From assembly GCA_977020255.1 (NCBI GenBank), contig CDROCS010002089.1:434001-498000 (forward strand): a stretch of 64,000 nucleotides of DNA, given 5' to 3'. This document shows, in pieces, positions 15,143-63,420 of the stretch. Source of the DNA: Obrimoposthia wandeli. Taxonomy: Eukaryota. Numbering within the stretch: position 1 is the first letter of the stretch; every line of letters starts with the position of its first letter. The position numbers and the translations under genes were made by a program. Below the pieces are notes generated by a model. The model was given only the letters and a program-made list of their open reading frames with translations, searched no databases and had not been told where the DNA came from.

Positions 15143-15877
15143 CCTTTATGGTTATTGTGAGGACAATGAGGAGAGTGGAACTGAGGCCAGTGAGAGTGAG
15201 ATTGTGGATGCCGCAGTCAAGGACGACACGAGCACGCAGGGTGTGGTTGAGAATGGTGAAGAGGGGATTGATTGGCAGGGCAGAGACGTTGTGCAGGATG
15301 AATGTGAGTGGAGTGAGGGGAGGCGGGAACTGCAGGGATATGTGACGGTGCGTCTGGGAGGGTCTGGAGGTATGACGAGGGGGGTCGGAATGATCAGTAA
15401 CTGTGATCGTGAGACTGTTGGATGAAGAGGTTCCGGGCGGAGCAGAGTCGTGGGCCACAAGAACGAGGGGGTAGGAGCCGGGTGGAATGCGGTGGGGGTG
15501 AAGGGGTTGGATGGTGTAGTTGGTGGGGGTCAACGACAACAGGCAGTATTGAGCGGGTTGGGGCTGTGTGAGGTGCAGATGGAACCGGGTGGGCACGGAA
15601 TCGCGATCTGTGATAGAGATTGTGGGTAACAGAGCTCCAGAAGATGAGGTCACCCATTGCACAGAAATAAGGGGAGCCTCGTCGTTGACATCGAGGAGGT
15701 AGATTGTCACAGAGGTTGAGCTTGTGTGCTGGAGTGCTACGTCATTGTCGTACGCGACTACTGTGAACTGATGCTGTGTGGCAGTCTCGTAGTCGAGCTG
15801 GCTGCGGACTGAGATATCCCCGGTACTCTTATCGACCTCAAATAGGGAATTACCCCTTAGTGAGTAGCTAACCTGAC
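15143..15877 (-). CDS. Protocadherin-like gene, exon 3
   Basis: 735 bp open, phase 1 to 1, acceptor tatacag|GT, donor G|gtaagt. QVSYSLRGNSLFEVDKSTGDISVRSQLDYETATQHQFTVVAYD...VTIYLLDVNDEAP is a canonical cadherin repeat. Confidence 0.92.
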
Positions 15878-16399
15878 CTGTATATGAGAGACGTATTATT
15901 TATATTTAAATATTTACATCTGACCACCAATGAAACTTCAAAGCGATAAACACATTTATTTAACTGTTATTTATGCAATTTAAAGGATTTTCTTCAAATT
16001 TGAAATTATTTATTTGATTTACATCATTATAATATTTATTTATAATGTTAAATCTCTTTAGAATTTATTCAAATAAATTTACAACTGCGAATACCTTCAT
16101 GTAAATATGTATATACTTTATTATACTTCATTTGACATTTTTTATTTTTCATTGATCAAAATTCCCATCGAAGTCACTGCCAAAAACTTACGATGAAATA
16201 TATTAATATATATATAAACGTTACCTTAAAACATTTGACAATTATAGAGACAAAAGATTTAGTTTAAATATGATAAACATTTTTAAAAAGACTTATAAAT
16301 TGTCTATGATCAAATATTTTTAAAACCGTGACTTCTTCGACGGAATTTGTGGAAAATAAACATTATTAGATGTTTATTTTGACATAAGATTATAATGAT

Positions 16400-16990
16400 T
16401 ACAATTATTAATGATAATTAATGATCAACATAATTGGTTTATCTGAAGTGATCTCAAGGTTGTGGCTCTTCTTTTTGGTATGCAAATGAAGTACACCAAT
16501 ACATGTTTTTGAGACAACAGAGACGAGCAATCATTTTACTGATAAAATATTACCAATGCAACAATAGTTTACTGATGGTGTAAAAGAAACATTCTTCTTA
16601 TACCCTTAGCGAATGGGTATAACGAATTTTTTTTGAAAGCTATGTAAAGTGCCAGGTTGGTACAACAAAGGTTCTTAAATATGAGTATGAATTGACAATT
16701 GGTGTATTCAATGTCATTCATAAAATAATCGGAGATGACTGCATGACGATTATTTAAATTGGTGGGACAAATATTTTATGAAATTGTATATCAGCTGACT
16801 TCATTGAGCTCGTAAATGATTTTCTGAAATTACCATGAGATGCATAATGTCGTTTAAAATGCATTTTTCTATTATAATCTGGACTCCTTTCTGGCTACTT
16901 GAGAGATATGTCTGATGAACACAGAGAAATATTCCATCGGGACATCTTGACTATGAAGCAACGATACCAAATAACGGTGACGACACACCA
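16400..16990 (+). mobile_element. Chapaev3-like (CMC) transposase remnant
   Basis: HNWFI*SDLKVVALLFGMQ and DMSDEHREIFHRDILTMKQRYQ match GDLKV..LLLG.Q and SDEHGERFHQDI..ME.RYQG. Many stops and frameshifts. Confidence 0.7.
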
Positions 16991-17645
16991 AATTAAAACA
17001 TTATTTTGCCAATCAATAGATAATGAATTGTTTGACTGATTTGTGTATTAATTATCTAGAATCAATAAAATTCACTTAACCATGAACAGTTTATGATATG
17101 TGAATAAAATAATTTCATTTTAAAACCATTTTTAGCATTTAAAATTTAACTACATGATTGTTTTTATTGCATACAATCAATAGACAATAGACGTATTATA
17201 AACTCTGACTGTCGATTTAGATTCAAGATATTCAAATGACCTAATGTAGCCTTAAATATTAGTAGTACATAATTTTTTCATATTTTTTATATATTACCCT
17301 TTTAAATTGGATAATTCAAATCCAGTTATTGTTGCACCTCTTGTAACAAACTAGTACATGCCAAATGGTGTTGGAAAAAGAAATCCAGAAGACATTGGTT
17401 AGTTGTGAATAGCTTTCCTTCAGTATGTAACTGTTTTGAAATTGACTTCATAATTTAGATAATTTGTCTTTAGTTTACACAGACTATTGTTCGACCAAAT
17501 AAATAATGTTACCTTCATTTATAGAAACTCGATATATTATCTACTAAGGTAGAAAAATTATTGATCAACAGAATTAGTGTGAAGGGAATCGAAAATGTAA
17601 TCACGGGAATGTTTGCTGTAAATGTGTAAGATGGAGAGCACGCAC

Positions 17646-17964
17646 CAGCAGAGCCGGAGTCACGGTCAAGTGCTGAGACACGGCCCACAATACAGCCGAT
17701 CGGGACTGCCTCAGAGAGGTGCCACACGAAGCGGGCCTGGGAGAATATCGGTGCAGCCCGATTGGCACTGTGCAGTGTCAGCAGAATCGTCACAACTCGT
17801 GACCATCGACCGCCACCGTCTATCACACGCACTTGCATCCCCATTCTCGTTCCCACGGTGTGGCGGCTGAGAGGAGCCTTAACCACGAGACGCAGATCCC
17901 ACCATCCGCTGCCTAGGACTGGGCTGGGTTGCACCTCTGCCCTGAATCGCTCTGTGGGATCACC
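17646..17964 (-). CDS. Protocadherin-like gene, exon 2
   Basis: Acceptor gtgttcag|GGT, donor G|gtgcgt, 319 bp, phase 0 to 1. ...LRLVVKAPLSR...VRVIDGGG...HLSEAVPIGCIVGRVSALDRDSG. Confidence 0.88.
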
Positions 17965-19959
17965 CTGAACACAAGTGGCAAAGGTATATCAATGTTTCAC
18001 ATACAGAAACTGTCAGAAAGTGCCATCCAACCAATGCAAATTCAGTTAAAATAACTTAAAGATATACTTGTTTACCCGAAAAACGTTGATATAGCCTTCA
18101 AAACTCGGTAATTAATCATTAAATAGTCGCGAGACAACCCAAACGTTTGGCAACTAATTCATCAGATGATGTTTACAATATGGACGAGCCTGAAATAGTA
18201 TTTCGAGGGCTTCCAAACAATACACCTTGCTTTTCCTATGAAAGGTGCAAGATTCGCAATTCTTCTATGTTTCAATTTCGTTAGAAAATCAGCTAACCCA
18301 CACTGTCTCCGTAGACTGAATGTAAAAAATCGAATTAAGAGGCTTGCATGGTTTTAGAAATTTTTATTAGTTGGCTTCGTGAGCTAGATCGCTGATTTAT
18401 TTGTGAAACTGTTACATGTTTATGTTAGTCAATAATTTCTCTTCACACCCCCTATTACTATTAGTATTTTCTTTCACCCAAATTTACCATCAGTTATTCA
18501 CCCTTTAAATCTAGAAATTAGTCAAATGTTCAAATTGAACTATTGTAAACGTCGATCGTGAATACTACGAGTGATTCACATTCTCTCGTTAAACCAAAAT
18601 CTCCTGATTTTGATTTCGATGATAGGAACCTTTTTAACAGTGATGCATCATAATTTTCTCGCATCGCATGACATTGATACAGAGGTGGATAAGAAGTGCA
18701 TAAGAAGTACATAAAATTATATATTGTAAAGCTATCTTAAAGCCTTTTACAACATTTTTATTTGGGACGCAAATTAACACAATAAATCTATCTGTATTCC
18801 TATAATCACGTTTATTTCCATTTAGTACTCGGAAGTTCCTTAACATTGAAACTGCTACATATAGATCATTTAGATAATTTTAAAGTTTTAATTAGCAATC
18901 TGTCTAATTGAGGTTGATTCATTTTATTTTCAATCATCATCAGATTTTCTTGGTTGAACTCAAAACACCTTGAACTATCCGGGCTAGACATGTCTAAAGG
19001 TATAGGAAAAACAACCAAACGTGAGGTTGTAGCCTGATTGTTTACATCAAATTGGGATGCAGAGTGTGTGTAATTCTTCTTGTTAAACAAAATCAGATAT
19101 TTGTGTAAGGTGTACGCTTTCATGTAACCCACGATGACAGATTAAATAAACATTTACTACTCTTAAAATCAAGCCTTGATAATATAGAGGTTTGGATTTA
19201 TGCTGTCTTTAAATATAAATAATGCGCATATGTAACAGAAATAGGGAAGATCTTTTTTACACTTTCCGTTGGGTGTTATAACTAAAAAGAGAGAAAATTA
19301 CAAATATTAATTTTCGATTAAACAATTCATGCTTTGGAAACGTTTGAGAACATTATGGAATATAGACAACTTTAAATTAAACATTTCTGAGAATTTTAAT
19401 TTTTGTAATTTAAAAACACGCAATATAAAAACTAAAAGAATTAATGAAGGAATTTATGAATTAATGTGTACATTATTAAATGAATAAATTCTAAAGATTA
19501 CATATCTAGTTTAATTTCTGTGATAGATCTCCAGGGCTTCTGTTCTGAAGTTTAAAAGGAGAAATTCTGAGATCATTTTGATTTTTATATTCATTGAAAA
19601 ATATAGAATACATCTTTCATTTTTTCGTCGCTTTATTTTCGGACATTAATTATTTTAACATTAAGCATTAACAAAAGGTCCGGATTATTGGGACTATTAA
19701 ATAGGGTTGACAGCATTATAGGATCAAATTATGAACCTTATTATATACCTTATATATTATCAGTGAAACCGGAAATCTCTAACCATAATGTTCTAGTAAT
19801 TGTTCTCTAGTTTTCATGTCGATTTTTATTCGTTGCTATCTCTTAACCTTATCAAAGAAAATCATTTATCCATTACTTTTCTCCAGATTCAGTATTTATA
19901 CACTCACGTTTCCTCCACACAAAACCAAAATATTCATCAATAAACATGCAAAATCTCAC

Positions 19960-20427
19960 CCGAAACATATGCGCTGCCTTTACGCTGTTTTTCATCTCAT
20001 CAGGATCCCACACACCGCCAATATTGATACGAGTACCCAGCGGCACATTCTCCGTCACTGCATGCCTCACCAAACTTACATTAATCCACGGCTGATGGTC
20101 GTTCTCGTCCTGTACCACCACTTCCACCACACGACTGATTCCCTCCACAGAGATAGTCACGAATGAGAGTAATTGCACTTTCTCTCTATCGATTTCTGTT
20201 GCTACTAGCACTTTACCAGTTTCTCGCTCTATCACTATCTGATTTTCGTCACTGTCACCATACTTGTACATCTCAAATGGGGCACTGAATCCCGGTGACT
20301 GTACTCTACCGATTTCCGTACCGATTTCACTGTTTTCCAGCACACTGAATTGCAGAACTGAGCTCTTGGGAGCCGCCACATTGTTAACCAGAACATAAAC
20401 TATGAATAAATAACCTATCGGGAACAT
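19960..20427 (-). CDS. Protocadherin-like gene, exon 1 (signal peptide, EC1, start of EC2)
   Basis: ATG plus hydrophobic leader MFPIGYLFIVYVLVNNVAA; FSVLENSEIG, EIDRE, VQDENDHQP, VTENVPLG, DPDE. Donor CGG|gtgaga, phase 0. Confidence 0.9.
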
Positions 20428-24100: not shown

Positions 24101-24182
24101 AAGAGATAATGTGGGTGGGGACAACCCCAGATATAAACCCAACATTTTAAAAAATTATGAATTTAACAATTTCGACTATAGA

Positions 24183-24410
24183 TTTCAAATTTTTGCAAAA
24201 ACTATTGTTGGAAAGACAATAACTTTAGAAGTAGGATCAGGTGAAACTATTGAAGATGTAAAGGTAAAGATTCAAGACAAGGAAGGCATTCCACCAGACC
24301 AACAACGGTTAATATTTGCAGGTAAGCAGCTTGAAGGTGAGAGCAATCTAGCAGATTATGAGATACAGAGAGAAAATACCCTTCAGTTAGTACTTAGACT
24401 CAGAGGTGAG
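24183..24410 (+). CDS. Ubiquitin domain fused in frame to the N-terminus of BEL Gag
   Basis: [76 protein letters not shown]: 56/76 identical to canonical ubiquitin by manual count. Continues directly into [25 protein letters not shown]. Confidence 0.93.
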
Positions 24411-25600
24411 ACGATGGAAGAAGAGATGAGGGAATGGATGCGGATAAAGAAAACAATGAAGTGGAATTTAACCAGATCAAGGAACACGATTATAGAAGGA
24501 ATATCGATTGGAAATATAGCGAGTCAGCGGTCGAGCTATGAAGAAGAATACAAAAAACGGTAAGAAAGATGATGGACATGGTAGAGTGGTGTTGTAATAA
24601 CAGGAAGAAGGAGAAAGCACCGAAACCCGAGAAGGAGAGACGAGCTAGAAGAAAATTATGAAGAAATCAGTCAACTACTCATCAAAAAAGTATCAGAGAT
24701 GAACTCAGAGGTTGGTTGGGCTGTGGATAGAAGGATGGTATCAAAAGAGAATATCAGACTTAAAAGATTAAAGAAGTTAACAGTCCCAATATTCAGCGGG
24801 AATGTAAGAGAATATGCAGCGTGGAAAGCAGTTTTGGAAGTATACGTACACAACGCCAGTGGAGAAGCAAGCAAGAAACTCCTATATCTCCAGGATTGTT
24901 TGAGAGGTGAATCGTTAAAATTAGTGGAGGGTCTGAGATTTTGTTTAAGCAAGGCCTATGAAGTGGCAATTGAAAAATTGGAAAGAAGATATGGGGGACA
25001 AAAGAAAAGTTATAATTTAATTTTAGCTCTTAAGTTATTGCCAGAGACAGCAATTATTAGCTGGGGAAGATATGTACACGCAACGAGATTGCAAGAAAAT
25101 ATGTACATCTTGGAGAACTGGGCTAGGGAAGAGTCACTGTATTTATGAAAAGCTACCGACATATCACGAGGAGTAAACAGAAGCGGAATGGAGCGAAAGA
25201 GAGCTACTTTCCACACACAGAAAGAAGAGAGGACCAATTTCAGATATCACGAGATAACGGAGTCAATAAGGCGGAACTTCCAATTGATGGGCGAGAACCG
25301 AGAAACGAGGAAAGAAGAGCCCAAAATCAGCGAGCAACGTGGAAGAAGAGTTGCCGCACATGTGGAGAAAATCATTATTTAAGCCAATGTGAGAAGTTCA
25401 AGAGCTTGCATTTGGACGAGAGGTGGGAGTTCGTAAGAAAGAATGCGCTCTGTTTTAATTGTCTTAATGAAGGCCATCGGGTGAATGAATGCAAGTTAAG
25501 GAAGTTTTGTAATGTGGCTGGATGTCCAACAAAGCACCACTTCTTGGTGCATCGGGAATGGAAGGAGAACACAATGTCACCGGTAAAATTCACAAATCAC
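24411..25600 (+). pseudogene. BEL/Pao gag, frameshifted
   Basis: DUF1759-like LKKLTVPIFSGNVREY...KLLYLQDCLRGE; zinc knuckles CRTCGENH, CFNCLNEGH and CNVAGCPTKHHFLVH. Confidence 0.88.
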
Positions 25601-25679
25601 ATTAAGATAGGTGGTAAGAACAAAGTAATTACATTGTGGACCGTGCAAAACGTTCTCAAAATGGGAAAAAAACTGTGCA

Positions 25680-28600
25680 GGTAAATGCGTTATTAGATGA
25701 TGGTAGCACCACCAGCTACGTCACAGTTGGGTGACGAAGGCATTGAAAGCAGAAGGTACAAGGCAGACAGTACCAGTCAGTGTTATCGGAGGTAGAGTAC
25801 ACGAAATACCCACCACCTCGGGACATTAACAGTGAAAGGGGTAGATAGTTGGGAAAAAATGCAACTAGATGTACTCACAGTAAATAACGTGACCGGTGAC
25901 TTGAACGTTTATGAGTGGGGAGATGTGGTACAAACGTGGAAACATCTCAGGAAGATAAAATTTTATCAGGGAGATAGAAGAATGCGGAAGGTGGATGTAC
26001 TTATAGGAGCCGATTGTATGCGGAAAATCGAGTATTGAAAGAGATTGCTGGGCGAGAGGGAGAGCCAGTGACACGATTGACTCCGCTCGGGGGACATGTG
26101 TAGGGTATGTCAATGTAGACCAGCGGCAACAAGTTAATTTCATAAAGACGTATTTTACAGGTAATGAGCAACTAGATCAGACACTTCAACGTTTTTGGAA
26201 GGTATAGGAAAAACTGGAGAAAACTAAGATATCGACTGAAGACAATAAATTATTGCAGATGACAAAAGAAAATTTGAAGTACGATGGCAAGAGGTATCAG
26301 GTAAAATTACCTTGGAAAATAGAAAAATAAAAATTACAGAAGAGTCAGGAAATGGCGAAAAAAATATTGGATAATTTGACACAACGTTTTAAACGGGATA
26401 ATCAGCTAGAAGAAGCATATGCCCGAGCAACAAAGGACCACTTACAGAAGGGGTATATTAGAGTAGTTGAAGAAAAAATTGAAGTGGAAACGAAGTGGTT
26501 GTTACCGCACTTCCCAGTAGTACGTAATGATAAAATTACCTCAAAAGTGAGAATTGTATTTGACGCAGCAGCAAACGTGTACGGAATGAGTTTGATTGAT
26601 GCTTTAGAATGTAGTCCAAAACTCCAGTGTGACTTATTAACAATACTAAAAAGATTCCGACGGCACCCAGTAGCATTGATATGCGACATTCAGGAAATGT
26701 ACCTACATATACAGGTTGCAAAAGAAGATCAACTGTATCTTAGATTTTTATGGTGGATAGATGGTAAGGTGCGGCAACTAGAGTTCAACCGATTGGTATT
26801 TGGTTTAAATACATATCCGTTTCCGGCACAGTTGATCACACAGGAGAATTCTAGAAGCGACCAAGAGAAGTACCCGAGAGCTGTTGAAACAATATTATAG
26901 TTTACCTATATGGATGATAGTATTGATTCAGTCACCACACTCGAACAAGGTTTAAAATTGAAATATGAGTTAAAAGAAGTGCGGGCTGCAGCAGGGATGA
27001 AAGCACGAAAGTGGTTAAGCAACAGCGAAGAATTGATGCAGACTGTACCTGAAGATGAGCGAGTTACCGAATGGAAGATAGAAGAAGAATATGAAGTAAC
27101 AAAGAAGACATTAGGAGTGAAATGGGATGCACGAGAGGATGTGTTTAAATTTAATGTCACCGAGATAAATTTATAGCGAATAACGAAAAGAACAATTCTC
27201 AGTCTCATAGCACGAATATATGACCCGTTAGGAATGGTAAGTGCATTTACTATAAAGGGAAAGATGATTATACAAAATATATGGTTAAGTGCTGCAGATT
27301 GGGACGATGAATTGAATGAAAAATTAACTACTACCATAAGGAAATGGAGCGACGATTGTTTATACTTAGACAGAATACGAATGAATCCATGTTTAAAAAT
27401 ATTCGAGAAATCAGTGATAGATTACCACATTTTTGTAGATGCGTCAATGAAAGCTTATGGAGCAGGGATGTATGCTTGTGAACGGGAAGAGGAAGTGCGC
27501 AGTACATTAGTAATAGCGAAAGCAAAGGTAGTCCCAATATCTACAATATGTATACCAAGGTTAGAGTTAATGGGAGCTTGTGTGAGATTAAACATAGAAA
27601 GAAAAGTGGCAGAAGCGTTAGAAATCGAAATGAAACAAATAACATTCTTGAGTGATAGCATGACCATGTTGAGCTGGATAGAACAGCACAATCGCTTGTT
27701 CAAAACATTTGTAGCAAGTATAGTATCAAATATTCAGAGACAAACAACACCTAATCAATGGCGGTATCTTCCTACCAAAGAAAATCCAGCAGATTTACTA
27801 TCCCGAGGTATAAATGTAGAAGATTTGGTAAAGTCAAGAATGTGGTGGAAAGGTCCAGAAATTTTAAAGCAGGAGCAAAAAGATTGGCCAAATAAGAAAA
27901 TAAATGCGCAAGAATCAAAAACTGGACGAAAGAAGGAGCCTTGTTTTTGTAACAAAAGTCAGAACATATGTGGGACAAACAGACGTATTTAGGACAGAGA
28001 CTTTTTCAGATTTGAGAAGACTGATTAAAGTACGAACTTGGATAAATAGATTCGTATAAAACTGTCGAGTTCCAAAATTAGAACGACAGATGGAAAAATG
28101 ATCGATAGAGGAATTAGAAGATGCAAGATGTGCTTTAATAAGAGAAGATCAGAAATTAAATTATCCAGATGAATTAAAAGCATTGAATGAAGGAAAATCG
28201 ATTCCACGGAAGAGTATAATTGCCAGCCTAAATCCAATATTAGATGAAGAAGGAGTGATAAGAAGTAATAGCCGAATTATAAATGCCGAGTCATTACCAT
28301 CAAGCACAAGATTTCCTATCCTTTTAGCACAACATAGTTGGGTCACATGGCTGATAATAAGAGATTATCATAAGAAACGAAAACATATAGATAGTGTAAA
28401 TCATTTATTTAGTGATCTAAGCAGACAATTTTGGTTAGAAAAAGCAAGAGTGGTCATACAAGAGTATCAAAGAAAATGTTTAGTGTAAATGTCGTGCGGG
28501 AAAAGGACTTATAGTGAAAATGGCTCCCTTACCATGAATGAAATTTCTAAGTCCAATACGAGCTTTTGATAAAGTGGGGGTTGACTTCGCAGGGCCGTAT

Positions 28601-29450
28601 CTAACAATGCAAGGCCGTGGCAAAATCCGACAGAAACGGTACCTTTGTTTGTTCACGTGCCTACAAACTCGAGCAGGGCATCTTGAATTAGTATTGGGTT
28701 TGGATACAGATGCGTTTCTACGAGCATTCAAAAGATTTATGGGAAGGTGGGGAAAACCACAACACGTGTTGTCAGATAATGGGACAAATTTTCAAGGAGC
28801 AGTCGGGATGGTGAATGAGATAAAATCGGATAATTATTTGCTGTGAAAAATAGCATATTCATTGGATATTTAATCGACCAGCGGCACCTCGTTTTGGAGG
28901 AGTATTCGAGAGTTTAATCAAGAGCGCTAAGAAAGCGATAGGTATTATACTGTTTAATGCAGATTTGAGTGATGAAGAATTTATGACAGTATTCGTAGAA
29001 GTAGAACATCTGCTAAATTCACAACCAATAACATTCCAATCAGTAGACAGTAAAGAAGAATTACCGTTAAGGCCAAAAGATTTTATGATGAGTGGACGAG
29101 AAGAACAGTTGGGAAATGAAACTATGTTGATAGTAGGAAGGCTTCGACATCGATGGTGTAGGATTAAGGAAATTGTAAGACATATGTGGAAGAGATGGAT
29201 GATCGAGATGGTACCTACTTGGATTAGAAGATCTAAATGGAGGAGTACGGAAAAACACTATACAGAAAGAACAGTTGGTGTGGGTATTAGATGGAAAGAA
29301 CGAGCAAGGAGTATGGCCGCTTGGACGAATAAAGAGTTTAAGACGAAACAAAGCAGGAGAGACACGAAGCTGTATAGGAGTGTTAGGTGGAAAGGAATTT
29401 GTACGACCGGTAGCGAGGTTGTGTCTGCTAGAGGTAGAAGGTAGAGAAGA
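25680..29450 (+). pseudogene. BEL/Pao pol (aspartic protease, RT, RNase H, integrase), multiple stops and frameshifts
   Basis: VNALLDDGSTTSYV; LPHFPVVRNDKITSKVRIVFDAAA; YMDDS at 26907; FVDASMKAYGA; IPRLELMGA; GVDFAGP; SDNGTNFQGA; EVEHLLNSQP. Confidence 0.92.
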
Positions 29451-37150: not shown

Positions 37151-38259
37151 TTTTGTTCGTCAGAATATATTAAGTCTGAAATGAAAGAATGCACCTTCAA
37201 AAGGAATAGAAACATACAATCAATTTAAAAGGCAAAAACGTCATCCACTAAAGCTATGCTCCAAATTAGCCACCCCTCAAATATATAATCAATTTTATCA
37301 TGCTTTATTTGTTGGTGATGTAATGGACTTTGTAGATTAATTTGCTATTTTAATTTATGTATAAAAATGTTCTAAATAAACTTATATTTGTTAAAATCAA
37401 GTGTTTGTACTATTGTAATTATTTTGAATAAAGCGTCGTAAGTAACAGAAAATAAAATAAAAATCGTAAACAGTTGTAAATAAATGTTTATTCATATTTG
37501 ATAAATAAATTACAGAATTTGTATATGCATATGGTTGAAAAACGTTCAAAAATATTTGATAATATATTTTAGATTTAAATTAGACATTTTAAAACATTTT
37601 GTAATAGCAACAACCAGATGAATGAAAATAAAGGTATGTACATTCATATAATTCCCTCTACTGTAAAATATCAGTTTTAGACATATCAACTTTTTGAAAT
37701 TAGCGTCGATATGTAACAACTATAAATAAAAGAAGCCAAAAAGGGGTTTCTCGTCATTTATGTCCGATTCAATTTCGTTTTGTTTTATTTGATGATTTAT
37801 ATATTTTTGCTATTAATAAGCACGTCGTTTCTTATACATTGATTAGAGCTGATAGATGAAAAAACATTGTGTCAAAGAAATGTTTTATAAAAAATTGGCC
37901 ATTTTCAGATTTGAAATCTATCTATTTTCATAAATTTCTGTACTAATTTTTGTTGTTGTATTGACAATGAAAATGTTATTAACGACTTCAGATTTTAAGA
38001 AACTTATAATTACAAACAAAATATAGATACTTTTTGAATTTTTGAATTTTTTAAAAAAACTAGTCATATTCTGGAATTTGTGAAGGGTCCATGAGGTCTA
38101 ATAAAAATTTCATCGAAATTGGCTATGCGCTTCAGATTAAATTGGACATTTTATGAATTAGATTGGCATCAATTTGAAATATATATTTGATAATTTCATA
38201 TTAAAATATTTAGCAGTGAATTCAAATATCTGGGGTTGGAATGTCATAATAGAACGTAC

Positions 38260-38524
38260 CGAGCGAAGAGGTGACAATGACGGAAAGCGCTCCGATGGTG
38301 AGACAGCCAACTTGTCGGTAGCGGTCATTTGGGATGGTAATGGAAAGCAACGATACGAACGCGAGCAGCACCGATTGACTGACTAGAATCAAAGGCAGAT
38401 CGCTGGGACTCTGTATGTAGTGCTGCAGCAGACTTGGAGCCACCAGCAGTCCCATACAACTGCTGTGTAGCAACCACACCGCGTGTTTTACTCCCACACT
38501 CCGCGTTCTCGGGTACGGAATCAC
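38260..38524 (-). CDS. GHITM: GHITM/TMBIM5 internal exon
   Basis: Acceptor ttcattag|GTG, donor G|gtacgt. IPYPRTRSVGVKHAVWLLHSSCMGLLVAP matches GHITM IPYDQSPGPKHLAWLLHSGVMGAVVAP. Confidence 0.92.
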
Positions 38525-38608
38525 CTAATGAACCCGAGATTTTGGGATTTTTAAAATGCTACTGTAAACTGATTTGTGCGGTTAATTGAGTGTTAGACAT
38601 AATCCCAC

Positions 38609-38904
38609 CTCTGACATAATGCCTGTGGCCATGACAATAACGAGGGGCAGGAGAGAAGAGTTGAGCTGCTTCCAGTCAAGGGAGTCACGGAATAAAACTG
38701 TGACAGCGCCGGTAGTAGCAGCAGATGATACACAGATGATCTGGTAGAGTAATATGCGCCTCAGGCGCTTCTGTATACCGCTGGGGAGGTCAGGTATTAC
38801 CTCAATAAGATTTGGTGAGTCATTGGGATTTTGTACGAGCTTGAGACCGAGATATACTGCTCCAGCCGAGACTAGACCATAAGCGATATGGGGTGCTATG
38901 AGAT
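38609..38904 (-). CDS. GHITM: GHITM/TMBIM5 exon (first clearly supported)
   Basis: Acceptor cttcacacag|AT is phase 1, donor GAG|gtggga, followed by an 84-bp intron. GAVYLGL...LPSGIQKRLRRILLY matches GHITM GALCYYGL...WPQYVKDRIHSTYMY. Confidence 0.85.
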
Positions 38905-39399
38905 CTGTGTGAAGTTGCGGGAATGGTTACCATGCATAGAAAAGTAAGAAAATTAATATATAAATATTCCAATGAAAATTAAATATTACTAATAAAAAGA
39001 AATCGATTGGAAATTGAATTTTAAAAAATCAGTGGAAGTCAAAATTAGAAATTGATGTTCCCAGTCAGAATTTAATTTGAATTTACAAATTCATAAAAAA
39101 TATTATAAGTATTTTCGCGACCAGACAAACGTCAGAAACAATCACGGTATTTCTAGACAATACTTATAATCCTGCAAATATCTAGAAAACTATCTAACCA
39201 CGCAATTTTGCTGTGACTACACTATCCCTCTAAACGATCGTTTATATTATTATTCTGATTACAGTGTTTGCATACAATAAAGATGTTAAACATTTTTTTT
39301 TACTATATATAATTCCCAACAAAAGTATACACACAATATAGCCAATATGGACTAAATTGGTGTCAGGGAATAAACAAGGGCCAATACCAGCAAACAATT

Positions 39400-43687: not shown

Positions 43688-45974
43688 ATCTAAGCCATCG
43701 TTTACATCATAATTCAGATTACAGTACTATCATAAATTAAAGATGTTTACAGTTTAATTTGACTATATATAATTCTCAACAAAAATATACCCCCAATTAT
43801 TGCCAAGTTCAGGAACATGAAAAACATTTATGTCATAAAATACGCCATGCTTTCCAACTGGGATTTAACTCATATTATAATAATTCAATTTTATATAAAT
43901 TGTTTGCTTTGATTTTACAAAAAAAATTGTAAGCCATTTGATATGGATGTCCTCAAAACATATTTCAAATTTCAACTAAATATCTTAAAGATTTGAGAAG
44001 GTATTGCCAAAGTTAACCAGGATTTTGACAATTTCTGCGACAAAATACTGGTTCTCGAACTAAATTTACTCATACAATTAGAAAGTAAAATCAATATCTT
44101 CAGGGACAATCATGATTTGATTTTCATTATGCAGGACAATGTTTTTTTCTGAATTTATCTTGTAAGATTCTGACTAAATGGGTTTCCAAAAATCAGCAAT
44201 GATTTGCTAATTAATAATGCTATATATGTTACAATATATCAAAAACATTGAAATTCTACAAATTTACTCAAAAATAAAGTTGTAATAGCTGAATTTTGAT
44301 CTCATAAATAAAATTATCTTTTAAAATTTCGCATTTAGCTGTAAATAATATTCAAGTTTGTATGACGTATTTGAAACCCTTGTATTGTTAAAAAAAGTTT
44401 AATTAGTAAATTATTTAGATTAAAAACAATTAATTTTTTAACTTACTAATATAATCAGACATTACAATTGAAAATTACATTTTGTAGTAAAATTTCGGAA
44501 ATTTTCAAAATATAAAATAAAACATTTCTTTAATTTCAATCTCGTTAAACAAATGAAATCATGCAATTTACTGGCATTAGTTAATCTTTGATTATCCAAT
44601 TTCATTTTTTTTCTTCTCCATATTAAAGAGATCAATGCAATAAATAATAATTTTAAACTAATTAAATTTTTAATTAGGTATTTTACTGGTCTTAAATATA
44701 GATAAGTCAAAATCTTTGAAAATTTACAATTATAAATTGCGTTTTAAATAAATATACTTAATATTTTGAAATTTTGTATTCTTAAATTTGCGAGTATTTT
44801 AAAATTTATTGACAATATTTGTTTGGGATTTTACACTTTCACAATTTTAAAACTACTTTACAATTTACAACTTAAAAATTGTAAATATTTGATTTAAATA
44901 TACATATATCATAAAAATTATTTCAACTAATTTTTCCATAACATTAATTTGAGCACCGTTATGAACACTAATTAATTTTATATGTAAATTAATTTTAATG
45001 AAAAAATGTTTTTTAGAGAATAATTATTTAACGGGTTAACCGATAAGATAATCCGAATTACACAAATGTGCATAATTTGATATTTGTTAATAGCAAAGTG
45101 TAATTCAATAATTCAATAATAAAAAATCCCTAAAACTTTGATTTTGTTAAATAAAACATGGAGTTAAAGATCATTGCAAGTTTATAACTTATGAATGAAA
45201 CATCAGATCTTTATAATTTATGTATCATTTTAAAGATAAAAGTTTAACTGATCCTTGAATGTACATTTTGTCAAGCCTACTCTTAGAATCTTTAAGTTAC
45301 TATAATTAGGTACACATAAAGTTGCCATACTACCAAGCACACATAAAGTTGCCATACTACCAAGCACACATGCCTACATTACAAATTTTTGAATGTTTGC
45401 TGCAAGCCCAAACTTGGCCATAATGATCAAATTAATCAGGTACAGAGGGACCGCCATTTTGTTTCAGTTCTAAAGTGGAACTTAAAATATAGAGAGTATG
45501 TGAATATGTTCTGTTTAAATCAAATCTAATGCCTCCCACCTTTTCTGATGGAAAATATGGAAGCTTACGTACTTTAAAATGTGCGTGTGTGTCTAACATG
45601 AAAATTGTGTTTGTGTGTATGATCTTAGAATACATGTTTGTCTATTTTTCTTGGTCGTATGTAAAATAATTTAGTGTCTAACTTCTGTATTTCATTCAAT
45701 ATTTTATGATAAAAATATGTAGGTCAAACTTATATATTTTTAGGGAAAATTACAAAACATGACAAATATTAATTTCAATACATATATCAGAAACACAAAT
45801 ATTAAATAAAAAAAACTTAAAAGCTTCATCCAAAGTACAAACAGTTTGCATTTTTTTCATAGTTTGTATTTTTGACAAAATAAATAAAGTATGATATAAC
45901 TTTGTTAGAATCAAAAATTAAATTCATTAAAAAATTTAGAATTAACATTGTGAAATGCTGACAGTCAGGAAGGT

Positions 45975-46800
45975 TTTTTTTAATCAACCTCCGACGGTAT
46001 AAACCCGTTTCGGCCTACCTTGGCCTCGTCAAGGAGATGGCTAAAATGTCAGAGATAAGTCTGATAAAAAAAGTAAAGCGGTTTTGACCGCCAAAGATTT
46101 ACCGCCCAGTAGCAGCAGCCTCTCTCATCCACCTTTCTCCATCATCTTCGACATCATCATCTATCTACAGCAGCCTTCAGCAACAGAGGACAACACCATC
46201 ATCTCGTTTTTTGACCACGGCAAAAATCGAATTTTGGTACCAACGCTACCCCTCTGGTACCTGGCTGAAATTTTGTTTCCCAAATGCGGTTCTCGAGAGG
46301 CCAGCACCGATGTAGCCCTGAGCTGCTGCCATCGGGATGTGGCAGCAACATTTTCCCACTGCTATGCGGAACCAAACTGTATTCTCTCTCCCTCGCAATT
46401 ACCGATTACCAGACAAACCACTGGCGATTCACCATCTTCTGCAGCAGTAACAGCTGGATTTCCTTTCTCCCGTACCACTATCGATTTCTCTTATAAATGA
46501 CTGGCAGCAGTCTTTTTGGATGTCTGCGATTCACTCAACAGGTGGACAGCAAGAACAACTCCCATGCCTGTCACAACAATATTCAATGGTCACTACACTG
46601 CCACAGCCTTCTTTCCCCAGTTCAGTCCATCACCTGTACAATCATTTTGCTGACTGTGTGTGTGCAAGTGATGCCAAGACACTCTTCTAATGCACATCAA
46701 TTCCTGTCTTCTCTCACAAAATCTATATTGATTTTTTCCAATTTCCCTCATGTGGGCATGTGTGTGTCCTACCGGTGACACTATCAAATTTCTTTGAGTT
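45975..46800 (-). mobile_element. Non-coding hammerhead-bearing element (Penelope-pLTR/retrozyme-like)
   Basis: Purine-rich body on the minus strand ending in the hammerhead and ATTAAAAAAAA. Shares ggagatgg...gtcagagataag with 62575-62631. Confidence 0.55.
45987..46038 (-). ncRNA. Type I hammerhead ribozyme, minimal, apparently intact
   Basis: Minus strand ATCTCC-TTGACGA-GGCC aaggta GGCC-GAA-ACGG gtttata CCGT-C-GGAGGT: all three stems pair, core YUGANGA...GAAA, GUC cleavage triplet at 45995-45993. Confidence 0.85.
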
Positions 46801-47635
46801 AGCATGTATTTCTTTTTTTAGTGCACATCTACTAATGTGCCTATCTTTTTGACCATAAAAGCACAAACAATTAATACAGAAACAAATGTTGGATTTTGAT
46901 CTTAATACAATTTGATTTCCAAGAATTACAATCTTTATTTTCTTATATTTGAAAAATATTTTGCTGTTATCAAACCAATTTTAATTCCAAGAAATTAACA
47001 ATTTGAAAAATATTTTGCTATTATCAAACGAATTTTTATGCCATCATATTTATAAGAACTTTGTGATCGAGTTTAATAGTAAACAGAAATTATATTACAA
47101 ATATTAAAATAAAAATGTTAAAATGGTATTTAAAATAATAAAATAGTATTAAAAAATATATATGAATTTATGTAAATGACATTTGAATCTGAAGAAGAAG
47201 CTGTACATTTCGGTTTCATTGGTAAATATACAGTTGCTAATAAAAAACGAGATATTATTTAATATAAGTTGATACCTGGTGGATATGCAAGATGTCTGTT
47301 TGTTGAAACTAAAATTAAAGATGTACTGGAATTAAAAATGTTTTCATAGGATTATAAAATAAATAACGAATATGATTTAGGTAAATTCCAGGATTGAAGG
47401 ATTCTAAGAATATTGAAATAAATGTATTACAATAGATAATGGAAAGCGGACGTTTACGACAAATAAAAATATAAAACGAATTTATTTTAATAATACGGTC
47501 GCTACAAATATCGGTTTAACAAGTCGTGTTTTTTAAAACCCATACAGTAAAGACCCTATAAAATCAAAATCTGGCGAAATATATAAATTATGTTAATCAG
47601 TTATATATTTATACTAGCTTAATATATCTGACACT

Positions 47636-50600
47636 TGTAGGAAGAGTGCGAATGCCACTTTTGTAATCAATTAGGATATCTGAAAGTCAAACCTAAAATG
47701 GTGATGTAAGTGGTATTCGTATTTATCGGTCAATGTATCTTCCAGTTGCTCTCTCATCTATAAACCATATTGAGGAATATATTACAGATTATTCCGAATT
47801 ATTAATTGATTTCACATACAAAGCCAAGGCAAGTTTAACATTACATTTAAGAAAAAGAAATAACAAACCCGGCAATAATTAGAGCTTATAGAAAAAGTTA
47901 GCAATGTGGCAAAATACCACATTTTGCCGATAAACAATATGGGTTCAGTTGACTTACAACATTAGGTAGATTCACACAATAAATCTCAAGGTTAGGGAAG
48001 ATCTATCTGTCATACAAATATAATATTTTAATATCAACTTTTAAGAACCATAAACTTCATAATTTTGAGAATATTCTTCCAGGTATTTCTACTTTAATAT
48101 GAAAAGGTAACTCAAACAAGAGTTAAGAAGGTAGCCTAATTAAACATAATTGTTAGAAGACCGAAGTTCAGGTATAATTCTATTAATAAATAAACAGCAT
48201 TCATTGTTGTGCTGAGGATATATATAGGTCATTATTGAGCAATACAAACATACCACACAAACACACATTCACCAGCATACATATTACCTAAAGACCCGTA
48301 GGTCCGTAAACCACGGTTTCCACAATCTATTAGATCTACCTCGGTTTTTTAAATTGTTTTATTCTTTTTATATTTGTTACTTTACATCTTTCGTAGAAAA
48401 TTTTATTTTGAAAGCTCTATCATGTATTTTTTCTACTATGACTCTAAAACCCTCATAGCGATTATCATCCTTATTTCGAACATCTATTTTACCAATACTT
48501 CATCGCCGATATTAAAATGTCGATAACTATTTTCCTTGAAGTTATTTTCCTTTTTTTGATTAATTCGGTTTTTGTAGGTTTAAAATGTGTCTTCGTATCT
48601 TTCTTTTTCTTCAAACCATTCAAGAGCCATTTTTTTCTAAATATTATTTCAGCTGGAATCATTTTTGTTGTTGCTTGTACAGTAGTATTCATAGAGAACT
48701 CTACTTCTGGAAGAACGTCAGCCCAATTTTTAGAGCATTTATCTTTCATTGTTAAATTTAATGAATCTCTGATTGTCCAAAATTTTCTTTCAACTTGTCC
48801 GTTACTTTAATGATGATATGGACTTGAAAATAATAATATAATTTTAAATTTATTTGCTAGTTCTTTCATTAAATTTGATTCAAATGATTTCCCACGATCA
48901 CGTGTATTTATCTTGGAGCTCCAAATTTTAGAATTCAATTATTCATAATTTGTGTTGCTGTTGTTTTTTCGCTTTGATCAGCTACAGCGTTCAGAACTAT
49001 GTACTTACTAATTGATCAATTATAGTAATTAAGTATATTTTTCCATTATATGTTGTTTTCAATGGCCCACAAAAATCTATAAATACGCTACTAAAAAGAC
49101 TGTAATCCGAATTTTCTTTATTTGATTATTTTGTTCTTGTCACTACTTTTAGTTTCTGATAATTTTCACAACTTTGAACTATATTTTTGATAAATTTAAT
49201 CTTTCGACGAAGTCAAATCTATGATAAATGTAATCATTTACTTTTATCCAACCTGCATGATATAGAGTTTTGTGAACATGCATTATTACTCTTTTATATT
49301 TTCTTTTGGTATCCATACTTTACCATTGTTAGTCATTAGTATATTATTGGTAATTTTATAATTACTTCTAATTTTCTTATCTCTTTGGAATTACTTTGCC
49401 ATTCTATGTCAATATCTTTTGTTTTCAGATTCCCTGTTTTTGGATTTTCATGATTAGTTTATTTACTTCTAATTTTCTTATCTCTTTGGAATTACTTTGC
49501 CATTCTATGCCAATATCTTTTGTTTTCAGATTCCCTGTTTTTGGATTTTCATGATTAGTTTTGCATTGAACACAAGTTCCACATTTACTTCTGGAAAGTG
49601 CATCAGCATTTGAATGGTTTTTACCTTTTCTGTACTCTAAAATCATATCAAGGCTACTCAGATGATTGCACCACGTTTGAAATTGAGGTGTTATTGGTTT
49701 TTTAGTTTTAAGCATGAAAGTTATAGCTTTGTGATCAGTTCGAAGACGAAATTTTTTGCCATATAGATAGTGTTTAAAATAATATGTCAAAAGCACAATG
49801 GTTAGCATTTCTTTTTTTCTAATACAGTAAACTATTTCATGAGGATTCATAGCTTTTGACTCATATTATATTACTCTTTCATGATCCAAATCATCTACTT
49901 GAGATATAACTGCACCAATTCTATCAAAACTGGCATCGGTGTCTACTAAAAATGCTTTCTTAAAATCTGGATAAATCAAAATTGGTGCTTCTATTAATTT
50001 CCTTTTTAAAGTTTGAAATAAGTTCTCACATGTTTCATTCCAAAAAGGTTTTTTCTCATTGCTACCTGATATTTTCTCTAATGGTCTCGCATATTCAGTA
50101 TAGTTATTAATAAATCTTCTATGGTAATTGGTAAGACCCAGGAAACTCCGTAGCTTTTTTACACACTTAGGTCGTTCAAAATTTTTAATATCTTCAATTT
50201 TAGTCGGATCTGTTTGTATACCTTTTCCTGAAATTATATGGCCTAAAAATTTTAGCTCTGTCTTCATAAATTGGCACTTTTGTAATTTCAATTTTAATCC
50301 AGTATTATTTATTTATTTTAAAACTTTTTATATCCTTTTATACATCTTTTTTTTGTCTCCGAAAATGTTAATATGTCATCTAAATATACAGCGGCTTCTT
50401 TCCAGTTTAATTCTTCTAAAACTTTATTTATTAACTTTTGAAAAGTAGCAGGAGCAGCTGCAATGCCAAAGGGCATTCTAGTGAAACAGTACTGTGTAGT
50501 TTTAGTAGAAAATGCAGTTTTTAGTTTATATTTTCGGATAATTTGACCTGATAATATGCACTACCTAAGTCTAGCGATGTAAAATATTTTAAAATATTTC

Positions 50601-55989: not shown

Positions 55990-56590
55990 TATACACCATA
56001 CATTTGTTGAAAATATCTGTTCTTATTCTCAATTCATCAGGACATGATTGAGTAAAATCAAGAAACAAGTAACCATGAGGATTTTTAGTTGCATTTTGAA
56101 ATGAATTTAGCAAATATTGCCTGTTATTAGGAAATACTTGACGTGAAATATAGTCAATAACGAGGATTCTTAAACAAAACCAAGTAATGTACGTTTAAAT
56201 TACGTGTTCTATGTTTACCGCCTTGATGAAATAGTTTTTAGTAATGAAAATTACGGTAACACAGTTGTGTTTTGATATTTTAGTGAATAAATTATTAAAG
56301 TTTGACTCTTTATTTGCTTCATCATAGAAGTCATCAATTACTATAACATATTCACGTTTTAACCGTTTTAACCAGTTTTGATCGAAACCATTGATAAATT
56401 TTATGTTTTTAAGTTTACACAATTCACGTTTAGTTAACCCGGATTCGCAAACATCACCATAATGCCAATAAATCTTATTAAATCGATTATTAAACATTTT
56501 ATTGTTTTGTAATAATTTAGTTACAAAATGTGTTTTTCCACTACCACTGGGTACCGATGTCTGATATACCGCATCATTTTTAAATTTTAT
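55990..56590 (-). pseudogene. Polinton A32-like packaging ATPase
   Basis: Walker A PSGSGKTHFV, Walker B VIVIDD, VTVIFIT, HYLVLFKNPR, GYLFLDF...LRIRTDIF. Confidence 0.88.
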
Positions 56591-57000
56591 AATAATAATA
56601 AGAAGAAGAATAAAAATATTGTTTATAAGCATTTTATTAATATATACACAAAAAATGAATTAAAAATTGATACAGAAAACGTTATTTACATCATGTTTAA
56701 ACGATTAATCTGAATGAAATTTTCAAAATCTTTTTTCCATTTGATATCTCAATAGACTGGGGTGCGAACAATTTCCTTTATATTATCATGAGAAAGTCCA
56801 TTAAAATTATAAAAGTACTGAACTCTATTTATTGTTCCGTTTTAAATTTCATCAACAACATCAACAACTAATTTATCGTGTTTAATCATTTTTAATCATT
56901 TTTGTATAAATCATCAAATTTCAATTGTTTATACTATGAAATTATATATTTCTTACTCTCCTTTCAATTATATATTTCTTACTCTCCTTTCAATTATATA

Positions 57001-60465: not shown

Positions 60466-61429
60466 AAAAACTACATTGGAAAAGTAAGGTTGTTTTGATA
60501 AACAAACGTAGCTTGATAACTCAATTTAAGTAAAAAGATAGACTAAAGTCAATTCGAAAACTAGAACCTAAGATACGTAGAAAGGTGAACCTCTAAATTA
60601 CTCAGCCGAATTAAAATCAATACGTTAGCATAAGGTCATCGTTGTTTAAGAGTGTTGAATCGAATATTAGAAGACGACCTACTTGTCTGCCTGATAGCAA
60701 CCTTTTTATCTAGTGTGAAATAATATAGTGTTTCCTTCAAACCGAGTGGAATTATTCAGTTAACCCGTATAGAATAGGAAAACACGAAATCCTTTTCACA
60801 CCACACTTCATTAGCGAGAACTCTTCTAGTTATCGTTGCATACATAACTGTGTATACTTCTTGCAATACAATAGCACAAACCTTCAGACTTAAACTAAGT
60901 TAAGCAAAACAAAACCTAAATAGGCCACCTCCATATGTGAGCCCTATTGCTACAGAACTCACGTTGGGGCCGTGATGGACAACCATAGTTGACCTTAATT
61001 ATACCTTCAAATCTTCAAATCAAAACTGAGTCTGACCCTTTGATTTATGGACGACCATACTTTTATGGATGAATTTGCCTTCTAAAGATGATTCAAACCA
61101 TGTACTAAAACCTTGATATTTGAAACTTGATTTTGTCTTTAGCCTGAACCTTTGATTTATGGACGACCATGGTCCTTTAGATGTGAAAATCGCAAATAGA
61201 GTTTGTTTATGATTAGTAATAATTTTATAATATTGTTATGTTTGTGATTTATAAATTTATTTCAATATAAAATTTCGTTCAAAATAAAAATGACAATTTC
61301 CTTTGTAGGGAGATGCAATAAAACCAAAATTATCTTTTCAATCGTACTTTAAAATTGTACAATTTGGATTAAACATAATTTAATGGCTAACCAACAGTAG
61401 GACTGCTGTTTTCATAAGAAGAAACACAG

Positions 61430-62150
61430 TGTAGGGGTAGACTGGATAAAAGTGTTGCGAAAAGGGTATCAACCAAAACTGTACAGATCACAGACACACA
61501 CAAAAACAGGGATATTTATTTGTTCCTAGGTGCTGAAACATCAGTGTAATGGAGAGGGGCCAAATGTGCGATTGGATAAGGATATATTGGCAAAGTGAAA
61601 GCATAACAACCAGATAGAGCGAGTGATCGACGAGAAGAGAGGCATAACTGGAGTCACTGGATGAAGTCACTAGGGAAAAACATACAGAAAGAAGAATACT
61701 GGATCGACCGTGATAAGGAACGGTTGGGAATCCGTGGGAGAAGGGGAGAACACAACTTCTGACCAGTATCTATAATGGCTGCTATCAGGACATAGGCGCC
61801 GTTTAAAGAGGACGATTGAAAATACCTGGTACATTACGTTCTAGGTCGTCCTGGGCCATCCTCAATCGGGGTAACTCATTCCACCAACACTTGTGTAGAT
61901 TGCAGATTGAACTGACCGACAGTGTGCCATTTGATCTTTGATACACTATCGAATCTTCTTTTTCTTTTATTTTGTTTACAGCTTTATCTCTGACTTCGCG
62001 GACATTCACACATTGCAAAGTCAGAAATAGAAACATACGCCGACCACCTGGAGAGCCCGGCTGGGCAAAATTGTCAACAAGGTTGATAGTAATGGTCTGA
62101 TTTAACCGCAAACGTTGTGATTACTTCAATATCTTAAATAAATGTTTATT
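61430..62150 (+). mobile_element. Hairpin-hammerhead element, plus-strand copy
   Basis: Purine-rich body, imperfect hairpin 61984-62031, hammerhead fold 62042-62097, AATAAA at about 62138. Confidence 0.55.
62042..62097 (+). ncRNA. Degenerate hammerhead ribozyme
   Basis: GACCAC-CTGGAGA-GCCC ggct GGGC-AAA-ATTGTCAAC aag GTTGATAGT-A-ATGGTC: stems pair, but the core has A6G and G12A changes. Confidence 0.6.
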
Positions 62151-62519
62151 ATTACTTGTTAAACCCAACAATATTTAGACACAATAATCTAATAAATAAA
62201 TTGAAAAATAATTATAAGAGAATATCATTGGAAACTGTCAGACATTTATTTTCTAGTTGAAGGTTCCTAATCTGATGGACTCCGCCGAACATGTTTTCTT
62301 TCAGTTCACCGTCTGTTATGGATCTCTACTTTGGAGTTACACTCCTTCGCCACAGTAGAATATAATTGGCGACTAAGGATGTAAATCGCCTCATTTATGG
62401 CTCTTCTTCACATTCTGCTTGATCTTCGTCATTAAATCTTTCATTGTGTTGAAAATCAATTTTCAGTGATATATCCCAAATTAATATTTAATTAACCGGA
62501 AATATTTACAATCTAAAAA

Positions 62520-63420
62520 TTAAATTCAACTTCCGACAGTGAAAACTCATTTTGCCCTGATATGGGCTCTTCGGGGAGATGGTTTATCTCTGACTTCGCG
62601 GTGGGAAAGTGCCCGCGAAGTCAGAGATAAGAAATTATGCAAGATAGGAAGTAATCAAATGTCTCGTCCTCTATTATGTTGGCAGCTTTTCACACTGCTC
62701 CTATCTGCAATGTCATGGTGCTCTCTGCCAATCGCCACGACCGCAGGTTTTCATTGTTTCAAGAACATCAGCCTTTGTCGGTCTGCTTTTGCGCTGCAAC
62801 AACTACAGTCAGTCTTATCCATATTCCCTCTCTAATCTATCCAACATAGTTTCAGCGCTGCTCCCTCTGTCTACCTATCTCCACAGCACAGTTATCTACA
62901 GTTGTGTATTCTACTCTCCCTTGCGCATTAACCACATTGCTGCCTAGATGGAGCGACGACCAAATCTTCCTCTCGATATCTGGCCTTTTTCTCTCTCTCC
63001 TGTCGACACAGATTGTAGTCGTCAGCAGCAACAGCGTAGGCCGACAACCTCTGAGGCTACCATTGCTCTCCCTGACGTCTACATCGCATACTCTTCATAT
63101 TCTTTTTCTCTTTCTCAGCAGCAACGACGGCTCAGCAGGTTTCTATCTGCAGCTACAAACATGTGCCCTTTCGGTTGATGCATTTCTCTTCCTGCTGCTG
63201 CTTATCTCCTTATCTGTCTCAGTCCCACCTTTATGGAGCCAGTCAAGACGCTGCCCAATGCCAATTACATCACCTGTACTGTCGAAGATAGTCCTCTTCA
63301 TATAGTACAGTAGATATGCTACCGCCACCCACCAGATTGTTGTCTCATTATCTCCTGATTTAGTTTCCCTAATGTGTTCCATCTTAGTTTGCTCTCACTT
63401 TGTCTCACAAACATGCATTA
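62520..63420 (-). mobile_element. Hairpin-hammerhead element, minus-strand copy
   Basis: Perfect 18-bp hairpin 62584-62630 immediately upstream of the hammerhead-like fold at 62529-62580. Confidence 0.55.
62529..62580 (-). ncRNA. Degenerate hammerhead ribozyme
   Basis: ATCTCC-CCGAAGA-GCCC atatca GGGC-AAA-ATGAGTTTTCACTGT-C-GGAAGT; core U4C and G12A, stem III partly broken. Confidence 0.5.

Follow-up and report, generated by a model that had tools for sequence, protein, structure and literature searches.

An antisense type I hammerhead motif in the U3 of an env-bearing Ty3/gypsy LTR family of Obrimoposthia wandeli, and its possible role

The window analyzed here is a 64,000-nucleotide stretch of one Obrimoposthia wandeli contig, taken from a 1.35-Gb, AT-rich assembly that includes bacterial contigs (the G000 contigs of loci L051-L080 and L111-L130). 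Bax-inhibitor-like and cadherin coding pieces lie on the minus strand at 38222-38926 and 15129-20427, and a BEL/Pao element, with a ubiquitin domain (E 1e-23) preceding gag in its first frame, occupies 24102-29444 on the plus strand. A weak match to RNA_helicase (PF00910, E 6e-4, under the cut-off) was found at 56195-56659 on the minus strand. The principal feature is a solo LTR that carries a hammerhead motif on the strand opposite to its own sense; its parts, and two older relics of the same kind, are listed in Table 1. To the right of this LTR, positions 47061-47972 match a repeat that occurs in L136 and L146 near DNA polymerase B-like frames, which we take to be Polinton-like; two frames of this type of repeat had no Pfam match.

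Table 1. Features of the hammerhead-bearing LTR and of related relics (positions in the window)
Feature	Position	Strand	Basis or remark
Target-site duplication ACTT, left	45899..45902	+	
Solo LTR, 1,155 bp, gag-env-pol Ty3/gypsy family	45903..47057	+ (element sense strand)	termini common to relatives; orientation from relatives' primer site and ORFs
Target-site duplication ACTT, right	47058..47061	+	
U3 body (purine-rich body of the initial annotation)	46042..46853	+	mosaic, with segments common to different relatives
TATA-like box CATAAAA (TATAAAA in L037-L039)	46854..46860	+	relatives compared
Type I hammerhead	45984..46041	-	antisense to element, near U3 start; stem I is flanked by a conserved GCC (5') and UGA (3'), both included
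Stem I	46038-46033 paired with 45992-45987	-	sequence
Core, first half	46032-46026	-	
Stem II	46025-46012	-	
GAAA	46011-46008	-	
GUC	last base 45993	-	
Predicted cleavage site, 3' of GUC	45992..45993	-	sequence and hammerhead numbering; 90 nt from LTR edge
Downstream arm, can pair with 3' strand of stem I (competing hairpin)	45968..45974	-	kept in subfamilies A-C, not in D
Second solo LTR, older, same kind, ATAT duplication, low complexity	61234..62170	-	decayed hammerhead 62028-62111 on +
Third hammerhead remnant, decayed, another old subfamily	62515..62594	-	LTR ends undefined

The minus strand from 46038 to 45987 reads as the three-stem junction that the initial annotation had described, and the minimum free energy fold of this 52-mer is the same three-way junction. 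The stability of the fold is ordinary (z -1.09; 27 of 200 shuffles were as good), and an Rfam search of the window copy at gathering and E-value thresholds returned no hammerhead match. A full type I descriptor matched once in the window and in none of 150 simulated 64-kb windows, and the motif belongs to a family of many copies; on these two grounds the sequence analysis confirms it as a real hammerhead, beyond chance. The window copy scores 96.8 bits with a model whose training set includes it. By the established numbering of hammerheads the cut would fall 3' of the GUC, exactly where it had been predicted. The same annotation had read the U at core position 3 (46032), which stands opposite G8, as a C3U variant. 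The natural variant in print is U3-A8, positions 3 and 8 forming a pair (PMC3088659, PMC4209133, available text). Since the U of the window faces G8 and is private to this copy, position 3 being C in 29 of the 29 nearest copies fetched, it is a private lesion and not the U3-A8 covariant; it reflects the decay of one copy. The 4-bp stem III also described holds for the window copy, with its mismatch at 45998, but not for the family, in most copies of which stem III has 5 bp and is 96% paired. In ViennaRNA ensembles of the window copy all three stems are populated at 0.18 or less, and the window ribozyme is probably weakened.

The sequence around the motif proved to be an LTR. Because the hammerhead is antisense, what had been taken for a purine-rich element body is U3 read backwards; as stated earlier, this body of 800 bp holds no RT or GIY-YIG gene. 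A frame of 151 aa within it (46045-46500) had no Pfam match and was treated as a chance frame of U3. Nor does the element end at the A-rich tail that follows the ribozyme: its fixed terminus, at 45903, lies some 80 nt further on. Copies throughout end at such a CCCAACA-type terminus, 80-110 nt past the cut, with TGTT starts on the other side. LTRs as a rule begin with TG and end with CA; the window LTR starts with TGTT, and its far end is TAAGA where relatives have TAACA. Among 69 distinct solo-like ends (those followed by interior sequence, or with less than 1,300 nt upstream, were omitted), 25 were matched by a TGTT at a distance of 450-1300 nt that is preceded by the same 4-mer, versus 4.0 in a shifted control. 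The fixed ends and 4-bp target duplications identify the host as an LTR, and direct terminal repeats and ends of the TG..CA type were likewise found. We infer that recombination between the two LTRs of an element produced the solo LTR of the window; when this copy was compared with other loci for an empty site, the right flank alone matched and no empty site was found. The TATA-like box at 46854 on the plus strand fits an element sense that is also plus, and would be the sense promoter ahead of R/U5.

Full-length relatives were found elsewhere in the assembly. On contig C873, two LTRs that are 98.1% alike over 1,287 bp, with AATG outside both, enclose about 12.6 kb in which Pfam matches occur, in several frames, in the order Retrotrans_gag (E 3e-4, under the cut-off), Monjiviricetes_fusion (E 1e-75), aspartic protease, RVT_1, RT_RNaseH and integrase, the integrase matches being weak. 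In a sister copy the last ORF matches an RNase_T exonuclease. On the gene strand, TAACA is followed by the primer site, which agrees with tRNA-Trp(CCA) genes found in this assembly. A search with the RT core found at least 150 copies, the 150 scored all being at least 98% identical, and the nearest database polyproteins are 52-58% identical, several of them with PF24664. In L237-L242 the primer-site matches extend over about 25-30 nt, versus the usual 18, and at L240:1497-1540 an LTR end and a following LTR start are separated by 38 nt whose complementarity to tRNA-Trp reaches the anticodon loop, an arrangement that looks like an integrated two-LTR junction with the primer copy kept. Other LTRs are shared or crowded: in L038 one LTR is common to two elements, and in L038, L165, L089, L090 and L096 the LTRs are in tandem or close together with hammerheads 0.3-1.2 kb apart, possibly representing short non-autonomous derivatives.

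In all of these elements for which orientation could be read, the hammerhead lies antisense to the genes. In C873 the genes and primer site are on one strand and the hammerhead is on the other, and the motif has one and the same orientation in its two LTRs; in L143, which represents the window's own subfamily, RT is on the plus strand and the motif on the minus strand. To avoid selecting on the ribozyme, every seventh of 150 RT matches was taken, giving 20 loci; homology extends to the 3' LTR in 13 of them and ends before it in 7. The motif was antisense, about 110 nt inside the LTR, in 13 of the 13 LTRs reached (12 by the strict descriptor) and sense in none of the 13. It was also opposite to the primer site in all six loci picked by a primer-site pattern; this pattern matched 48 times, 36 of the matches forming a tRNA array, and the first 6 were taken.

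The 13 RT-anchored elements (the L152-L167 set) have RTs that are 98-99% identical and U3 sequences that are nearly unrelated: the median identity is 0.60 for U3 beyond the ribozyme and 0.70 for the last 300 nt of the interior, suggesting that U3 is heavily shuffled among elements with near-identical RT. At the position of the polypurine tract, all 13 3' LTR junctions have a C-rich sequence and then AGGAT, reading ..CCCCATAGGAT or near, and no purine run; a copy of subfamily D (L234) has a short purine run there. Just before the C-rich/AGGAT sequence the L152-L167 junctions have a conserved GTCAGA/TCTGAC hairpin.

The initial reading was right in placing a hammerhead of type I in a mobile element that is repeated, and the ribozyme is abundant. 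Querying the genome with the 151 bp that surround the motif yielded 662 candidates; 40 of these were scored and, the window itself aside, were 90-94% identical. Related copies that retain the core do exist: 19 of the 29 nearest pass a core-and-GUC test and 10 fail it. Exact canonical-core patterns had 85 genome matches for the window's subfamily and 5,071 for two sister subfamilies, the reversed control giving 0 in each case; family counts here are exact-pattern counts. About five subfamilies retain the core and the stems, with compensatory pairs, while the LTR sequence adjoining them diverges, and the complete core, CUGANGA / GAAA / UH, was present in all 13 RT-anchored LTRs. In the 18 copies anchored on RT or the primer site, ungapped identity rises at the 5' edge of the ribozyme from 0.25-0.39 to 0.78-1.0, and the free base at core position 7 is C in nine, U in seven and A in two.

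Pairing was examined in 64 copies (64 of 65 rows), picked by a core-spanning pattern so that core invariance among them is partly built in. In these copies 96.9% of stem cells are paired, versus 31-54% in slid controls, and at three pairs both bases change from one subfamily to another (A-U/G-C in 17 copies, G-C/C-G in 18 and C-G/U-A in 12). In this alignment (A1) the number of doubly changed pairs was not above that of shuffles (113 of 500), so the covariation rests on few inherited events. The two decayed relics in the window led to older subfamilies, which differ in pairs of both stem I and stem III and in the distance between ribozyme and LTR end. When these subfamilies are aligned by fitting to the model, with four phage rows included, 11 pairs are doubly changed, a count matched in 1 of 500 shuffles. 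G.U cells number 80 versus 13 C.A cells, 56 of the 80 coming from two inherited positions. The GCC before stem I and a GGC in loop II are more than 90% conserved in alignment A1, without covariation, and L242 has no GCC; we infer a possible tertiary contact of the GCC/UGA flanks with loop II. Judged from such alignments, there are signs of selection on the ribozyme stems and core in this LTR family, which is known here from one genome and in which cleavage is predicted. Elsewhere, 26 metagenome loci with RT 34-55% identical had no model match in contigs of 1-10 kb, which may not reach the LTR, and a search of other species with queries P0047 and P0040 gave no loci. The four phage contigs (L227-L230) resemble the family in GCCGC, in the first half of the core and in stem II, which is identical; after these come an apparent ribosome-binding site and a short ORF. 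These contigs were not counted as hammerheads because the closing stems are missing.

We on balance incline to the reading that the antisense U3 hammerhead cuts antisense RNA in cis, during transcription and before the element interior is reached, and thereby blunts host silencing. Antisense RNA is the presumed target since the motif is present only in antisense RNA. Such RNA would run through the LTR from host read-through or from a two-way LTR promoter. In the 3' LTR, the predicted cut would fall about 90 nt before the antisense RNA enters the interior, and RNA that covers the genes would be left uncapped with a 5'-OH end. RNA of this kind is predicted to be unstable, or to be poorly routed into small-RNA pathways, and the weaker silencing would benefit the element. 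Folding of 13 usable canonical copies with ViennaRNA gives partial support for a co-transcriptional window, in that stem I is populated before the downstream arm is made in six of them (L023, L047, L152, L155, L158 and L163), being formed with a short 3' flank and dropping in probability with 40 nt past the cut. Stem I is at or below 0.14 at all lengths in five others (L005, L086, L167, L224 and L235) and persists in two. It should be noted that a hammerhead 5'-OH end may escape Xrn2 (PMC2702688, available text), so that the polymerase may keep making antisense RNA across the genes and the cut may define that RNA and not remove it. A role in translation initiation, as described for RNA-virus ribozymes in the available text of PMC13725137, was rejected, there being no ORF past the cut: none of more than 81 aa from an ATG occurs within 3 kb past it in any of the 13 loci.

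The presence of the motif in both LTRs, in the same direction, also allows a reading in which the ribozyme makes antisense RNA. Cuts in the two LTRs would release a unit-length copy of about 14 kb with 5'-OH and cyclic-phosphate ends, which might be circularized, as are retrozyme RNAs lying between two hammerheads (PMC4918200, PMC7229834, in the parts available), and which would regulate element copy number. The downstream arm could shield the new 5' end, as the drop of stem I in six copies would allow, but this protecting arm is not in subfamily D. Antisense transcription through 14 kb of element would moreover be required, and the primer site of such an RNA has the orientation opposite to that needed for reverse transcription. 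We consider this reading unlikely. Somewhat less likely again is that U3 received, in reverse orientation, a hammerhead fragment from a retrozyme or Penelope-like element, which has been retained because it forms a hairpin on the sense strand or lies near the integration end, and not for catalysis. The complement does make the same Watson-Crick hairpins, the adjoining LTR edge is conserved anyway, and modules move between classes, exonuclease ORFs being common to bdelloid LTR elements and the Penelope-like Athena (PMC5408684, available text). Yet conservation extends to the unpaired core, whereas position 7 is variable and so are the sequence and length of loop III; subfamilies also have different spacers between the ribozyme and the LTR edge, and the fixed differences are G.U on the hammerhead strand, where they would be C.A on the sense strand.

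A service to reverse transcription, in which the cut products mark or supply a primer in a family with no ordinary polypurine tract, appears to us decidedly improbable. The junctions described above, which have no purine run at a position 90-110 nt from the cut, and the 3'-5' exonuclease ORF of the element are in its favor. Hammerhead cleavage leaves a cyclic phosphate on the 5' product, however, only sense RNA can prime the plus strand, the family has a tRNA-Trp primer site of the ordinary kind, and subfamily D has its short purine run. We give very little credence to the host proposed at the outset, a Penelope-like pseudo-LTR or non-autonomous retrozyme that cleaves as a dimer, even though animal type I hammerheads have mostly been reported from such elements (PMC4209133, PMC7229834, available parts). 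Here the full-length relatives are gag-env-pol Ty3/gypsy elements with their genes on the other strand, and the LTR termini, 4-bp duplication and primer site are theirs. No telomerase-like RT or GIY-YIG ORF of Penelope type lies beside any copy examined, the adjoining genes being Ty3/gypsy, and no tandem array occurs in the window. The 5-bp stem III of the family rules out a minimal hammerhead with weak helix III and makes a dimer unnecessary, and the LTR and primer site, with no short tandem repeats, rule out a metazoan non-LTR retrozyme. A Penelope partner was also sought by way of PF01541, which had 69 matches; the 20 long-frame and 30 top loci look bacterial (gene-dense), and there was no credible model match among the loci fetched, to which this check applies; the genome may still hold Penelope elements. 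The bacterial-looking loci are presumably UvrC-like.

The preferred reading, control of antisense RNA by cutting, would set this family apart. In the available text of the literature, retroelement hammerheads (those of Penelope-like elements, tandem animal retrozymes and plant LTR retrozymes) act on the element's own sense RNA. A selected antisense hammerhead in a coding, env-bearing Ty3/gypsy element, in thousands of copies, would point to a different job, and it opens two questions to testing, the function of genomic hammerheads and the way in which LTR retrozymes acquired their own. More broadly, we put forward tentatively, as an idea somewhat short of probable, that an env-bearing autonomous animal LTR lineage has domesticated a U3 antisense hammerhead as a protein-free counter-silencing switch or as a maker of genome-length antisense circles. 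If true, this would be the first case of an autonomous, reverse-transcribing, virus-like element with a ribozyme in its LTR, and it would offer a living model of the origin of LTR retrozymes. Thousands of strand-specific RNA cutters would affect host transcripts and could shift the orientation bias of intronic LTRs. Our literature search found no hammerhead described in an autonomous or an animal LTR element, although a mention may have escaped it; retrozymes are cited only as non-autonomous in the available text of PMC10886601.

Among known systems, as far as the available portions of the cited papers describe them, the closest in gene layout are the GAG-ENV-POL errantiviruses with an HSV/gB-type envelope reported from Nematoda, Bryozoa and Platyhelminthes (PMC13524379), flatworm and bryozoan elements being among the rows of the supplementary table. 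The likeness extends to LTRs, a tRNA primer site, a length of about 14-15 kb, many near-identical copies, the Ty3/gypsy pol order and a gB-like fusion protein between gag and pol; the protease-RT-RNase H-integrase order and the placement of env were found here in a copy in several frames. The words 'ribozyme' and 'exonuclease' do not occur in the available main text of that paper. Plant LTR retrozymes (PMC4918200, PMC7761336) likewise have a hammerhead in the LTR, 4-bp duplications, Ty3/gypsy-type ends and many solo LTRs. They are, however, non-coding and non-autonomous, sharing only short boxes with autonomous elements, and have a type III hammerhead on the primer-site strand and a tRNA-Met primer, in contrast to the coding, env-bearing animal element described here, with its type I motif on the opposite strand and tRNA-Trp. 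The hammerheads of metazoan Penelope pseudo-LTRs resemble ours in being of type I and near the end of an autonomous animal retroelement, but that is a different retroelement class; they are mostly minimal, without a stable helix III, and in an anole Penelope-like element the hammerhead is on the ORF strand (PMC4209133, PMC11167929, PMC8557442). Metazoan non-LTR retrozymes share the canonical type I hammerhead in thousands of copies of an animal genome; they are tandem repeats of 150-450 bp reported to be without LTR, PBS or PPT (PMC7229834; bioRxiv 10.64898/2026.07.22.740005), unlike the elements described here, which have LTRs and a primer site. In the bdelloid Vesta/Juno LTR retrotransposons, which are Ty3/gypsy-like, an extra ORF after pol (ORF3) encodes a DEDDy exonuclease, and the word 'hammerhead' is absent from the available text of that paper (PMC5408684). 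The elements described here also have a DnaQ-like exonuclease ORF after pol, but in Vesta/Juno the exonuclease replaces env, whereas here both are present.
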